A stretch of 51,130 bases of DNA from an uncultured Muribaculaceae bacterium (GTDB taxonomy: Bacteria > Bacillota_I > Bacilli_A > RF39 > UBA660): positions 1 through 51,130 of the forward strand of contig CAZKKR010000002.1 of assembly GCA_964553605.1 (NCBI GenBank), given 5' to 3'. A model generated the notes under the pieces. It did not search any database, was not told the origin of the DNA, and was given only the letters and a program-made list of their open reading frames with translations. Of the stretch, positions 18,903 through 27,823 are shown in pieces (the first letter of the stretch is position 1; every line of letters begins with the position of its first letter). The translations under genes were made by a program, and so were the position numbers.

Positions 18903-18931
18903 TTTACTTATTAATTTATAAATGTTATAAT
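18903..18931 (+). promoter_or_regulatory. Candidate promoter of hydrolase cassette A (TTTACT, 17 nt spacer, TGtTATAAT)
   Basis: tttact 18903-18908, tgttataat 18923-18931. The same element recurs at 23250 and 27710. Confidence 0.45.
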
Positions 18932-20560
18932 TATATTATAGGTAAAATGTTATGTAAGTAGGAAGGTGATATAGATGGTATTAAAGAAAAAGACATCTAT
19001 ATTTGTATTAATTTTAATTTTGGTTTTACCATTTAAACATGTTTTAGCGGCTCCAACTAAGGAGTTTAAGAAAGAAACTTTTTGTTATTTGTGTAAATAC
19101 AAAAAAAGCGATGGGCTTATGTATGTAAAAGAAAAACAATTTTATCGTAAAGTTGAGCTTTTAAAATCTACATATGGTAACAGTATTGATGAAATTGCTT
19201 TGGCTGCATCTGTGTTACATCGTTATGGTACTGATGAAGCTTATAATAAAGTTTATGAAAGTGATTTTAATGAGGATTCATACAAAGCAAGAGCTAAAGG
19301 TTTTTCAAAATTGCTTACTAGTTCTTCAGATGATACTTCCTCATTATCTGAGGATGAGTCAAAAGCTGTGCAAGAAAATGAAAAAATAGATTTATTAACA
19401 CTTGCGGCGATAGTGATGGCTGACTCTAATCATCACGGTGTATATAGCGATGTTTGTTTTAGAGATGCCCTTGCTGGAAACAGATTAGTAGGAAACGATG
19501 AAAGTAGTATTTTTGGTTCTTTATTAAATGCGATTACTTGTAAAAAAGAGGCAAAGGGAACTAGCTCTTATGAAGGGGATAGCAGTATAGTTGCTGCTGA
19601 ATCTAACAAATTGCGTCTTAAAAATTTAAAAAAAGTTTGTGAAAATGGTTTTGTTGGTGGTCTTTATAATGGTATTTCAGATTTAACTGATGAAAAACAA
19701 AAGGAAGCCAAGAAAAAAGTTTATGCTCAGCAAATAATAGATTTAGCTAATTATTATAAAAAATTATATAGTAAAGATGATTCTAGTTGTAATATTAATA
19801 TAGCTGGGGCAACTGGGGATTTTGCAAATTGGAAGCAAGCTGATCCTGCTTGGGGAAGTGTAAATATGGGAGGGACCCCTAATGTTGCCAGATATGGTTG
19901 TATGATAACTTCTATTGCTATGCAAATTGCCCGTTCAGGGACACAAATTGGACAGTTACCTAGTGGATATACAGAGTTTAATCCAGGGGCTTTCGCTACT
20001 AGTTTAAGTAGTCATGGTGGCTTTGCTGCTGATAGTGCCAATTTTACTGGAACAGGATTTCAAACAATTGCACCTAATTGGCGTATGATTGATATGGTGG
20101 AAGTTAGTTATGCTGATGATAGCAGATTAGCTGATATGATAGCAAAAGAGCTTTCTGAACCTTATGATGGAAAGTATCAAAAATTTATAATTTTAAGAAT
20201 ACAGGCTACGGGACATCCTCAACATTGGGTTGCTGTAAATGGCGTTGAAAACGGACATGTGACTGTATTTGATCCTGGATCAAGCGGTGTTGGTAATACT
20301 TTGAGCGAGGGATATAGTAATTTAGTTATTAATGGTTATAAAGTGATGTATGCCACTGATGTTATGTTTGGACAGACCGGGACTAGTGCTAGAAGTACTT
20401 GTACAAGTAGTTATGGTACAGGAGCCATTCAGATTCCATCTCCATATGGTGCCGGTGGTTATACGGTAACGGAAATTGATGTATGGAATTGGTTATATGA
20501 TTGCCGAAAAGTTTATGATGAATGGATTGCTAAAGGGGCAAAACATGATAATGGACTTGC
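18903..20560 (+). repeat. Direct repeat copy 1 (about 1658 bp): promoter, RBS and the first ~529 codons of hydrolase gene A
   Basis: Offset of 4347 bp to copy 2. Lines compared by eye are identical, and the first mismatch I found is 20561 (g) vs 24908 (a). The translated products are identical through residue ~559. Confidence 0.85.
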
Positions 20561-22469
20561 GACAATCGATGGAAGATATTTAATTGCATGTACTTCGACT
20601 TTTGGAAAAGTTGGCGATAAAATTGACTTCTTCTTAGAAGATGGTACAAGAATTCCAGCAATTATGTTTGACACGAAAAACCCACATGATGCAAATTATA
20701 ACCAATGGGGGCATTCTGATGGTGGTAATGTTATAGAGTTTGAAGTTTTATCTTCTTATTATCATAGATATGGAAATCCTGGTAGTAGTGAATGGTTTCC
20801 TCAGTGGGCAGGAAAAAGAGTTTCTAGTGCTACTAATTTAGGTGGCGGGGGAAGTAGTCAAGTTTCTTCTAGTAGTAATCAGGTTTCAAATAATGTGTGT
20901 GAGACAAAACGCGATGGTGATTTGATAGCAAAACTTGCTGTTGCAGTTGCACCTACTGCTGCACCAGATTCTCGTATTTCTGTAGATCATTATAAAACAA
21001 AAAGCGATGATTCAAGAGCAAAAGCATATAATGATATTTTTTATCAAACTATTGCTAAGTATCCTTCTGATGGTGGTGGAAACCCTAATGCTAGGGGTGA
21101 TGGTTATAATAATCCTGCTTATGCTTCTTGTGCACAAGCAGCAGCTGCCATTATAAGGGCTACGGTTGATCCAGATATTTCTAGTGGGAACCCTACTTCT
21201 ATGGAGCAGTATTTAAAAAATAATCCTGAAAAATGGATTAAAGCTGGCGAACTAAAAGCTGGTGAAAAATTTACTGATAAGTGCAAACCTGGAGATTTAT
21301 TACTTACTGTTGATAATTCTGGTGATAGTGGTCATGCAATGATTTATGTTGGTAAATATGCTAAAAACAATTTTCCTAATACTAATGGCGTTGTATGGGA
21401 AGCTGCTAATGATATGTCTGGTAGATATCTATATCCAGGAATTACTGATAAGAAATCTTGGAGTTCTACTATGGCTATTTGGAGACCAACTGGTAAAGGT
21501 AGTTTCTATTATCCATTTATTGATATTAGTAAGTATGTTGATATAGATGTTTCTTGCAAAAAGAATAATAGTAGTGGTCAAGTATGTATTAATGGACAAG
21601 CAGTGGATGGTAATAATGGTGTTGGAAGTACTAATATGAATTATAGTAATGCTGTGGAAATTCCTGACTATTTGTGGAAAAACCATGTTAGATGGGATAC
21701 TGATCCTAGTATAGTGGTAGTAGATGATAGTGGTAATGTTCTTGCACAGAGGAAACCAAATGTCAGAAGAGAAGGAGCATCTACTACAAAAGTATTTTCT
21801 GGATATGCAGCACTTAAACTTTTAGATGTTAATAACGATGTTGTGACTACTACGCAATTTATTTGTAGTAACACAGACAATAGCAAAGGTGTTGCAGTTG
21901 GAACTAAAACGTCTGTTGTTGACGCGGCGACTCGAGATTTCCCCGGTTCTGATAATGCTAGAGCCGATAGTATTCCTTTGGCGATAGGTTATAAATATTA
22001 TAGTGGTTCTAGTGATAAAGATGCATATACTGTAGGTTTGGAAAAAATGAATAATCTTTATAGGCAAATAGGATGTACTAATACTAATATAGGAAGTGGA
22101 AGTGGAGTAATTTCTTTCAATGATTCTGGATGGAGGTCCCAGGATATTTATGGTATTCAGACATATTCTGATGGAACTGGACATACGGCTAATGATTTAG
22201 CACTAGTTACAATTGAAGCTATGAAAGATGAAAATTTTGCAGGTCATTTTAGTAATAGAAATAATGAAGGATTATTTTATATTAAAAGTGGAACTGGTCA
22301 TTGTGGCCATGGTATTTGGGGATTTAATCATAATGGGAAAAGATATTATATTTCTATTTTAGGTATGAACTGCAATTGGAGTCAAGGGTCTCATGATGTG
22401 AAACATACCTCAAAGGAACGAACTGTGAAAGATATTTATAATTGGGTTATTACTGATTTAATTAAATAA
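18975..22469 (+). CDS. Secreted multi-module peptidoglycan hydrolase A (1164 aa): unknown N-domain, C39-like Cys peptidase, 3D/DPBB-like region, NlpC/P60-like module, serine DD-peptidase/beta-lactamase-fold domain
   Basis: Signal peptide MVLKKKTSIFVLILILVLPFKHVLA/AP. WKQADPAWGSV...ARYGCMITSIAMQIA...HWVAVNG..VFDPGS (C39-like). RYLIACTSTFGKVGDKIDFFLEDGTRIPAIMFDTKN..NVIEFEV (3D-like). ASCAQAAAAII...KPGDLLLTVDNSGDSGHAMIYVG (P60-like). REGASTTKVF (SxxK), GSDN (SxN), IKSGTG (KSG). Confidence 0.75.
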   Translation: MVLKKKTSIFVLILILVLPFKHVLAAPTKEFKKETFCYLCKYKKSDGLMYVKEKQFYRKVELLKSTYGNSIDEIALAASVLHRYGTDEAYNKVYESDFNEDSYKARAKGFSKLLTSSSDDTSSLSEDESKAVQENEKIDLLTLAAIVMADSNHHGVYSDVCFRDALAGNRLVGNDESSIFGSLLNAITCKKEAKGTSSYEGDSSIVAAESNKLRLKNLKKVCENGFVGGLYNGISDLTDEKQKEAKKKVYAQQIIDLANYYKKLYSKDDSSCNINIAGATGDFANWKQADPAWGSVNMGGTPNVARYGCMITSIAMQIARSGTQIGQLPSGYTEFNPGAFATSLSSHGGFAADSANFTGTGFQTIAPNWRMIDMVEVSYADDSRLADMIAKELSEPYDGKYQKFIILRIQATGHPQHWVAVNGVENGHVTVFDPGSSGVGNTLSEGYSNLVINGYKVMYATDVMFGQTGTSARSTCTSSYGTGAIQIPSPYGAGGYTVTEIDVWNWLYDCRKVYDEWIAKGAKHDNGLATIDGRYLIACTSTFGKVGDKIDFFLEDGTRIPAIMFDTKNPHDANYNQWGHSDGGNVIEFEVLSSYYHRYGNPGSSEWFPQWAGKRVSSATNLGGGGSSQVSSSSNQVSNNVCETKRDGDLIAKLAVAVAPTAAPDSRISVDHYKTKSDDSRAKAYNDIFYQTIAKYPSDGGGNPNARGDGYNNPAYASCAQAAAAIIRATVDPDISSGNPTSMEQYLKNNPEKWIKAGELKAGEKFTDKCKPGDLLLTVDNSGDSGHAMIYVGKYAKNNFPNTNGVVWEAANDMSGRYLYPGITDKKSWSSTMAIWRPTGKGSFYYPFIDISKYVDIDVSCKKNNSSGQVCINGQAVDGNNGVGSTNMNYSNAVEIPDYLWKNHVRWDTDPSIVVVDDSGNVLAQRKPNVRREGASTTKVFSGYAALKLLDVNNDVVTTTQFICSNTDNSKGVAVGTKTSVVDAATRDFPGSDNARADSIPLAIGYKYYSGSSDKDAYTVGLEKMNNLYRQIGCTNTNIGSGSGVISFNDSGWRSQDIYGIQTYSDGTGHTANDLALVTIEAMKDENFAGHFSNRNNEGLFYIKSGTGHCGHGIWGFNHNGKRYYISILGMNCNWSQGSHDVKHTSKERTVKDIYNWVITDLIK

Positions 22470-22493
22470 TTTGTTTAGAAAGGGGTTATCAAT

Positions 22494-27671: not shown

Positions 27672-27700
27672 ATTTCAGTTATTTTACTGAAATCTTTTTT
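27672..27700 (+). terminator. Rho-independent terminator after cassette B (copy of 23211-23240)
   Basis: atttcagt (27672-27679), tatttt, actgaaat (27686-27693), then ctttttt. Confidence 0.7.
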
Positions 27701-27709
27701 ATTTAATAA

Positions 27710-27738
27710 TTTACTTCTTAATTTATAAATGTTATAAT
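27710..27738 (+). promoter_or_regulatory. Third copy of the cassette promoter element, here upstream of virD4
   Basis: tttacttcttaatttataaatgttataat, with TGtTATAAT at 27730-27738. One mismatch to the 23250 copy. Confidence 0.4.
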
Positions 27739-27823
27739 TATATCTGAAAGAAATCAAAATTGTTTATAAATTTATAATTTATTTAAGGTATAATTATTTT
27801 GAAATTTAAGGAGGAATATTCTT

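Follow-up and report, generated by a model that had tools for sequence, protein, structure and literature searches.

Part-identical tandem genes for predicted secreted wall hydrolases in a chromosomal Tad pilus and type IV secretion locus

Multi-domain VirB1-like hydrolases such as PrgK, TraG and Orf14 are standard in the type IV secretion systems (T4SSs) of Gram-positive bacteria; almost all functions known for these systems are DNA transfer, and other roles are a long-standing open question (PMC12857230, a 2025 review). Here, we describe two tandem genes for large, predicted secreted hydrolases, HydA and HydB, that lie within a locus combining a Tad-type pilus with a monoderm T4SS on contig CAZKKR010000002.1, the analysed stretch of 51,130 bp and 30% G+C that is called the window throughout.

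18975 to 22469, forward strand: HydA, 1,164 amino acids
23322 to 26837, forward strand: HydB, 1,171 amino acids

The explanation that we favour, and regard as rather probable, is that HydA and HydB are wall-breaching hydrolases of the secretion machine with dedicated LppM-like partners, which were duplicated and owe their partial identity to gene conversion.

The described VirB1-like set comprises PrgK of pCF10, TraG of pIP501, Orf14 of Tn916, CwlT of ICEBs1 and TcpG of pCW3. Like HydA and HydB, VirB1-like proteins are encoded in the T4SS block near virB4/virB6, and each has between one and three domains that cut the wall (CHAP/NlpC-P60, muramidase/SLT, LytM), in combinations that vary by system (PMC12857230). 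In contrast to these membrane-anchored proteins, HydA and HydB carry a predicted cleavable Sec signal, reach ~1,170 amino acids and form tandem paralogues with gene-converted 5' halves. They furthermore contain a new all-alpha N-terminal domain, termed N1, without fold match, as well as C39-like and S11-like modules, two types missing from the review's list of VirB1-homologue domains (PMC12857230). Both are encoded in addition to a canonical anchored NlpC/P60 enzyme, and no relaxase was detected in their host locus, which lies on the chromosome.

The T4SSs of Patescibacteria and Saccharibacteria (PMC12102498; PMC12857230) resemble this locus in being monoderm-type and chromosomally fixed, with no relaxase nearby, several VirB2-like pilin genes and neighbouring type IV-pilus-like genes. 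The window lineage, however, is an uncultured, spore-forming gut lineage of the Bacilli class, its pilus genes are of the Tad type (RcpC, CpaF-like, TadB/C-like), and a large secreted hydrolase family is not reported for those systems. The new elements are the N1 domain, the C39-like and DD-peptidase-like modules, predicted secretion in place of anchoring, the recombining tandem paralogues and a candidate class of LppM-fold partners.

Architecture of HydA and HydB and their family

The modules of the two proteins are arranged as follows.

HydA 1-25: signal peptide
HydA 27-280: N1, all-alpha
HydA 281-470: C39-like (C309/H417/D433)
HydA 471-625: unassigned module
HydA 626-880: NlpC/P60-like
HydA 881-1164: S11-like DD-peptidase
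HydB: first three modules as in HydA, then a second C39-like module (Pfam match 693-820), an S11-like module (856-1140) and a 31-amino-acid tail

HydA and HydB are 97% identical over residues 1-628, then unrelated for ~250 residues and 55% identical over the last 288. The original prediction, which had been made from the letters of the window alone, described the same succession of a shared N-terminal part, unrelated central modules and a C-terminal realignment; only the ~60% identity that it gave for the latter is slightly too high. Its reading of a constant N-terminal region with variable C-terminal modules holds family-wide, where the arrangement is upheld by recombination. Sec signal peptides, which it had assigned to both proteins, are likewise predicted throughout the family as 13-21 hydrophobic residues, a P-x-x-[VA]-x-A site and then acidic residues, and in HydA and HydB they would be cleaved.

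N1 is confidently modelled as all-alpha by AlphaFold2 (AF2; pLDDT 78, pTM 0.77), with no fold match in the PDB (best E 0.86) or among the viral models of BFVD (best E 0.47), no Pfam match and no PDB sequence match. A lysozyme- or SLT-like identity was rejected on these grounds, and going by its model N1 is a new, family-specific domain without structural relative. An N1 profile run against 1.84 billion proteins recovered 81 cluster representatives; in full-length matches, most of them 600-1,400 amino acids long, N1 lies at most ~330 residues from the start.

A search of 5.8 billion proteins returned 64 relatives, 58 of them strong, and N1 together with the C39-like domain is found in all 58, with C309, H417 and D433 invariant. 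Similarity of this domain (residues 281-470) to its namesake is weak in the window proteins (E 0.11) and better in relatives (Peptidase_C39, E 1e-4). The module at 471-625 is common to about half of the 58 homologues, and the remainder downstream is variable. It had been suggested to be a 3D/DPBB domain, which we rejected after Pfam scans of 12 members taken singly and a PDB profile search gave no such match at E<=10; these searches detected no relative of the module at all.

For the central module of HydA, the proposed NlpC/P60-like nature is in keeping with the putative catalytic residues, a Cys and a His being invariant and a PGD...GH.MIYVG motif present; the profile similarity is weak and stays below the Pfam cut-off. 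HydA itself matches NLPC_P60 with E 0.03-0.04, and among homologues of the module this is the sole recurrent family (5 of 10 members, best E 0.0015, every match below cut-off). The top PDB profile match is also an NlpC/P60 protein, at a weak E of 1.1. The second C39-like module that had been read from HydB was recovered as Peptidase_C39_2 with E 3.5e-5, above the Pfam cut-off.

The C-terminal domain had been singled out for its three serine DD-peptidase motifs, and indeed S936-T-T-K939, S992-x-N994 and K1104-S-G1106 are invariant across six homologues and stand in S11 order and spacing. Both domains match Pfam Peptidase_S11 with E values of 1e-5 and 3e-6 (25.6 and 27.2 bits at a cut-off of 27.6), and the best PDB sequence match is a DD-carboxypeptidase (E 0.017). 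Judged by these motifs and profiles, the domain is a divergent relative of Peptidase S11. The window also encodes a canonical PBP5-type DD-carboxypeptidase 10 kb downstream (37170-38246; Peptidase_S11 E 4e-63, plus PBP5_C).

In the relatives, Pfam matches cover C39_2 (2e-13), NLPC_P60 (6.5e-19), CHAP (1.4e-13), Glucosaminidase (1.2e-16), Amidase_2 (6e-21), Phage_lysozyme (6e-4) and DUF4886. The modules of the window proteins and their relatives are thus predicted to be of wall-hydrolase type, as had been proposed, and it is in this sense that we infer enzymatic activity. One relative of 1,376 amino acids (P0002) carries the central modules of HydA (85%) and of HydB (78%) in series before its S11-like domain, which identifies the modules as beads on a string and not as alleles. 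Taken from their sequences, HydA and HydB are paralogous members of a small, lineage-restricted family of Sec-secreted, multi-module predicted murein hydrolases.

The secretion locus and the genes beside the hydrolases

To place the family in its surroundings, 15 loci with context were compared, which come from metagenomes and from metagenome-assembled genomes (MAGs) labelled 'Bacilli bacterium' (sheep jejunum, rabbit, human, rumen) and whose open reading frames were labelled by BLAST and hidden Markov model searches against the window; gene presence is counted over the 13 loci that cover the region. In all 15, window included, a big hydrolase gene lies between virB4 and virD4, with one copy in most loci and two in the window, L001 and L002. 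The observed synteny extends well beyond this segment. To the left, the conserved order is VirB6, two small genes, VirB4, a small NlpC/P60 gene with one or more lipoprotein genes where these are present, and a membrane protein on the minus strand; to the right, the hydrolase and, where present, a lipoprotein gene are followed by a DxDxDG protein, VirD4, rhodanese, RmuC, DUF2238, RNase R and SmpB. ScpA/ScpB are encoded upstream of the Tad genes, and a transfer-messenger RNA (tmRNA) follows SmpB.

Across the loci, T4SS identity scales with that of housekeeping genes (VirB4 82-97% vs RmuC 81-98%). No relaxase or integrase domain was detected by Pfam between ScpA/ScpB and SmpB, a very divergent relaxase being beyond such detection. 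An integrative and conjugative element (ICE) was rejected in view of the constant housekeeping flanks and the missing Pfam domains; together with the shared identity trend, these features mark the locus as a vertically inherited chromosomal machine and not as an obvious ICE.

The genes directly beside the hydrolases that bear on their function are the following.

22494 to 23210, forward strand: lipoA, LppM-like lipoprotein of 238 amino acids, likely the dedicated partner of the NlpC/P60-like module
17598 to 18314, forward strand: LppM-like lipoprotein, paralogue of lipoA, always after the small P60 gene, with lipobox and C-terminal transmembrane (TM) helix
26886 to 27671, forward strand: DxDxDG membrane protein of 261 amino acids with N-terminal TM helix, constant gene beside virD4

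The lipoA product has an LTGC lipobox and a C-terminal TM helix, and in its family G20 and C21 are invariant and Thr19 nearly so. Its AF2 model (pLDDT 75) finds LppM of Mycobacterium tuberculosis as top Foldseek match (2nc8, E 8.5e-7, probability 1.0), and one member of the lipoprotein family matches Pfam LppM with E 7.6e-6; a role as the missing VirB8/NTF2-like T4SS subunit was rejected because Foldseek points to LppM. LppM (Rv2171) shares the fold, the N-terminal lipobox and the C-terminal hydrophobic helix with lipoA, although sequence identity is only ~10%. It has been studied for its effects on macrophage colonisation (PMC5217060), and a limited search of the LppM literature found nothing to connect it with murein hydrolases or secretion systems.

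Within the family, the observed co-occurrence of lipoproteins and modules is pronounced. A lipoprotein gene follows 7 of the 10 hydrolases that contain a papain-like NlpC/P60/CHAP module and none of the 8 that do not (Fisher p 0.004, shared ancestry being ignored). In 11 of 13 loci there are as many lipoprotein genes as NlpC/P60/CHAP modules (per-locus counts, rho 0.96), and the two loci that have no such module have no lipoprotein either. Matching counts and co-occurrence together suggest one dedicated lipoprotein per papain-like module. The paralogue at 17598-18314 is 26% identical to lipoA (BLASTP E 3e-15, same ends), and in a neighbour-joining tree the post-hydrolase lipoproteins form a clade apart from most copies that follow the small P60 gene.

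The DxDxDG protein behaves differently. It contains an invariant D159-x-D-x-D-G loop of the calcium type, a second loop of this kind, two conserved Cys and a weak FG-GAP match, and its gene is present beside virD4 in 13 of 13 loci. It is kept whether the hydrolase ends in a C39-like, lysozyme, amidase or NlpC/P60 module or in nothing; in L017 the order is reversed, with the DxDxDG gene ahead of the hydrolase. As it is invariant regardless of modules, it was rejected as cognate partner of HydB. No module-specific downstream gene accompanies the C39-like, S11-like, lysozyme or amidase modules, and neither lipoA nor the DxDxDG protein resembles a known immunity protein. The proposal of a cognate small gene for each cassette keeps partial support through the lipoproteins, which track NlpC/P60/CHAP modules, and falls for the constant DxDxDG gene. 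The two downstream genes do encode anchored proteins of different families, recognisable by lipobox and TM helix and by DxDxDG loops, as had been described; the lipoA family, however, is not unique to cassette A.

Three further genes frame this segment.

16720 to 17601, forward strand: small NlpC/P60 hydrolase with N-terminal TM anchor, directly after virB4 in the canonical VirB1-like position
18339 to 18887, reverse strand: small single-pass membrane protein of 182 amino acids, the sole minus-strand gene of the block
27824 to 30088, forward strand: VirD4-type coupling protein (Pfam T4SS-DNA_transf, E 5e-59), downstream end of the T4SS block

The first of these is the hydrolase that had already been noticed at 16720; it matches Pfam NLPC_P60 with E 0.0037 (orthologues up to 5e-15), and 11 of 13 related loci have it. 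Twelve loci contain a homologue of the minus-strand gene, in each case on that strand and beside the big hydrolase, and with weak matches to Sigma_reg_N (anti-sigma N-terminal) and to a Mycoplasma ICE TM protein its product may be a regulator.

The left half of the window supplies the Tad-type pilus genes, encoding RcpC (3409), a CpaF-like ATPase (4476) and TadB/C-like proteins (6061 and 6966), and the monoderm T4SS genes for three VirB2-like pilins, a VirB6-like protein, a TraC-like protein, VirB4 and the NlpC/P60 enzyme. The whole Tad and T4SS block measures ~33 kb (window 120-30088; L018 1-10000) and runs from ScpA/ScpB to rhodanese-RmuC-RNase R-SmpB in every related genome. The three VirB2/T4SS_pilin-like genes (10149-11972; 121, 120 and 352 amino acids) stand ahead of the VirB6-like gene; in related loci this array comprises 2-4 genes with 24-93% identity and resembles the Saccharibacteria array. 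At the start of the locus (120-2969) lies the gene for a secreted, Cys-rich protein of 949 amino acids, which has no Pfam match and contains three tandem repeats of ~24 amino acids of the type GxGxYKDLVWDPxxKxC. In L019 it is split or replaced by genes for 468 and 452 amino acids, and in L018 a TED-domain (thioester) adhesin is encoded just upstream of it. The tmRNA (34822-35170) encodes the short tag GNRNNYVPSFA, which ends in FA instead of the usual LAA. An -FA ending is a typical trait of tags in Mollicutes-like lineages and would agree with the 'Bacilli' label of the MAG.

The repeat and the history of the tandem pair

The shared 5' part of the two hydrolase genes belongs to a long repeat, which is bordered by further duplicated elements.

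18903 to 20560, forward strand: repeat copy 1, starting exactly at the -35 box, with promoter, ribosome-binding site (RBS) and HydA codons 1-529
23250 to 24907, forward strand: repeat copy 2, with promoter, RBS and HydB codons 1-529
23207 to 23239, forward strand: terminator-like hairpin and T run after cassette A, 97% identical to 27668-27700
27668 to 27743, forward strand: second terminator copy (27668-27700) and third promoter copy upstream of virD4, from repeat comparison

These two copies are the longest exact in-register repeat (1,658 bp, offset 4,347), so the base-for-base identity that had been claimed was recovered in full, and residues 1-529 of HydA and HydB are 100% identical. Beyond the repeat, DNA identity per 100 bp falls to 98, 89, 79 and 66% and then to a background of ~30-38%, in line with the gradual decay described before. 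An extended -10 promoter, TTTACT-17-TG-TATAAT, occurs in three copies at 18903, 23250 and 27710, of which the last precedes virD4. The common terminator that had been assigned to each cassette was found as well, and the hairpin at 27668-27700 scored terminator-like.

A perfect repeat raises the worry that the tandem is false and was joined in assembly from the differing versions of a single-copy locus in two strains. The window is indeed a short-read MAG contig, and its differences from the scaffold L012 are mirrored in both copies, as a collapsed repeat node would give. L012, however, is an independent ENA scaffold of 61,420 bp from another sample that is 99.94% identical to window 12494-33210 and has the same layout and perfect repeat. 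A third sample yielded a MEGAHIT k141 contig (L013) that corresponds to window 20420-23505 and reaches from the 3' end of HydA across the lipoprotein gene into the first 256 nt of repeat copy 2. Its left end lies exactly 141 nt ahead of the base at which HydA-specific sequence begins (20561), and its right end exactly 141 nt past the last of four copy-B-specific single-nucleotide polymorphisms (23308-23364). Breakpoints at k=141 are how an assembler behaves at a true repeat, and the junction from HydA 3' end over lipoprotein gene and promoter to hydrolase 5' end therefore exists in nature. A separate tandem hydrolase pair, with 11 mismatches in its repeat, is found in L001, which is more distantly related. 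With the tandem or its junction in three independent samples and assemblers, we rejected an assembly chimera and consider such an artefact highly improbable.

Window and L012 differ at 13 positions, 12 of which are six sites (19931-19967) mirrored at +4,347 in copy 2. These six substitutions within 37 bp (19931-19967; 24278-24314) amount to one amino-acid change, Q327E, in both repeat copies. The cluster may mark a tract of micro-conversion, or else the copies differ here and repeat collapse masks it: either both copies were converted together or one bubble branch was used twice, so that the real copies may differ slightly and the '100% identity' of the repeat may be slightly inflated by short-read graph collapse.

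The observed concerted evolution separates the two ends of the hydrolases. Between genomes, the hydrolase 5' halves share 68-87% identity and the S11-like domains 57-77%, the latter grouping by type and not by genome. Within the window, the S11-like domains of HydA and HydB are 58% identical; that of HydB is closest to the single gene of L005 (77%) and the first gene of L001 (72%), and that of HydA is 57-59% identical to all others. L005 is the closest of the relatives compared, with 92-98% identity in the conserved flanking proteins VirD4, RmuC, RNase R and SmpB. Its only hydrolase gene is of the HydB type, with the DxDxDG gene coming directly next, and the product is orthologous to HydB over the full length (76%). 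In L001, the paralogues are again 100% identical over residues 1-529, within 1,991 bp at 99.45% that begin ~84 nt upstream of the start codon. Since S11-like domains group by type while 5' halves match within a genome, the duplication or the module sets are old, and gene conversion has homogenised the 5' halves in at least two lineages. Of the two origins put forward originally, recent duplication or gene conversion, the second thus stands; a recent whole-cassette duplication was rejected as source of the identity, given S11-like domains that share only 58% and group with orthologues in other genomes.

Further peculiarities of order and content were seen in both other loci with two hydrolases. 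L001 (126-7557) encodes an rve-family transposase just upstream of its first hydrolase and has a cassette order unlike that of the window; after the first hydrolase follow genes for a YkuD-type L,D-transpeptidase and the DxDxDG protein and an 81-amino-acid lipoprotein remnant. L002 (2103-3141) contains fragments of a VirB4-like gene (112 amino acids, 57%) and a small NlpC/P60-like gene (133 amino acids) between virB4 and the intact NlpC/P60 gene, and the latter is followed by three consecutive lipoprotein genes. Fragments and lipoprotein run point to repeated local duplication in the segment between virB4 and the hydrolase.

A putative role in crossing the wall

In the explanation we favour, the hydrolase family would be a built-in component of the chromosomal Tad pilus and monoderm T4SS locus. 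Each enzyme would combine the all-alpha N1, which may dock to the machine or to the wall, with a C39-like cysteine peptidase and exchangeable wall-cutting modules. HydA and HydB, together with the anchored NlpC/P60 enzyme at 16720, would cut several different bonds of the thick wall and thereby let the secretion channel or pilus cross it, in the producer and possibly in a partner cell too. The tandem would go back to an old duplication, of which the 5' 1.6-2 kb were kept identical by gene conversion, with 3' module sets that would be ancient, separately inherited and shuffled among relatives. The LppM-like lipoproteins would be extracytoplasmic partners of NlpC/P60/CHAP-type modules, most likely inhibitors or spatial regulators that shield the membrane-proximal wall of the producer, and the DxDxDG protein would be a constant machine component. 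Besides enzymatic activity, it is this wall-breaching role and the function of the lipoproteins that we infer.

Several points weigh against this explanation. The signal peptides are predicted to be cleavable, while all known Gram-positive VirB1 homologues are membrane-anchored (PMC12857230), and a canonical anchored NlpC/P60 enzyme is already encoded after virB4. For an enzyme acting solely on the wall of its producer, which is presumably conserved, there would be no obvious reason for such turnover of modules, for duplication or for homogenised 5' ends; these features are more typical of proteins facing non-self. The co-occurrence of lipoproteins and modules, moreover, was calculated as if the loci had no common descent.

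Some of these points would suit a polymorphic antibacterial effector/immunity system, as the original prediction had inferred, in which the hydrolases are weapons released at or delivered to neighbouring bacteria, the variable C-terminal modules toxins and the small downstream proteins immunity proteins. Polymorphic toxins (contact-dependent inhibition (CDI), Rhs, LXG and the Sec-dependent S8-PTS, PMC9424270) likewise have a constant N-terminus, exchangeable C-terminal modules and paralogue recombination, which the homogenised 5' region recalls, and small extracytoplasmic proteins encoded downstream. The hydrolases are predicted to be secreted, not anchored; Sec-dependent polymorphic toxins are known in Gram-positives (PMC9424270), and there is one LppM-like gene per NlpC/P60/CHAP module, the three-gene runs in L002 included. 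The constant region of HydA and HydB, however, itself contains a conserved enzyme domain, and no trafficking or pre-toxin domain (LXG, RHS, PT-TG, XVIPCD, MafB and similar) was matched by Pfam at E<=0.01. All modules of the family are predicted to be wall-directed and none is of a kind acting on nucleic acids or membranes; most, among them the C39-like, lysozyme, Amidase_2 and S11-like ones, have no specific neighbour. The DxDxDG protein as candidate immunity protein does not vary with the hydrolase, the lipoprotein fold is that of LppM and of no known immunity family, and in most relatives the hydrolase gene is single-copy and fixed in position. X-Tfe/X-Tfi of the Xanthomonas-type T4SS share the T4SS locus, the peptidoglycan-hydrolase domains and the extracytoplasmic lipoprotein partners, but the host of HydA and HydB is a monoderm, XVIPCD is absent by Pfam, and the Sec signal implies export without the T4SS. 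What stood of the toxin/immunity reading is thus its architecture, recombination and lipoprotein-module pairing, and as a whole we regard it as unlikely, though conceivable. Similarly unlikely is a contact-dependent variant, by which the T4SS/Tad machine breaches with diversifying hydrolases the wall of a second cell, be it prey, host or DNA partner, and the LppM-like lipoproteins are a new immunity family with one member per NlpC/P60/CHAP module. HydA and HydB might, finally, be housekeeping or sporulation autolysins lying in the T4SS locus by chance. The organism forms spores and has a GerA/B/C operon, the proteins combine Sec signals with autolysin-type modules, and distant C39-like matches are fused to SpoIID. 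Such an origin is nevertheless improbable, because N1 is confined to the HydA/HydB family with its 81 representatives, every member with context lies between virB4 and virD4, virD4 has the same promoter sequence as the hydrolases, and a canonical PBP5-type enzyme is encoded separately at 37170-38246.

If the contact-dependent variant were true, the locus would be the first case of a Gram-positive-type T4SS coupled to an effector/immunity arrangement. The locus is one whose T4SS has a fixed chromosomal place throughout a lineage, no relaxase having been detected, and whose most variable parts are predicted secreted, recombining hydrolase paralogues. HydA and HydB are clonable candidates for how a T4SS crosses or attacks a thick wall, with a DD-peptidase-like module among their parts, and their lipoprotein neighbours raise the LppM fold as a candidate murein-hydrolase inhibitor.

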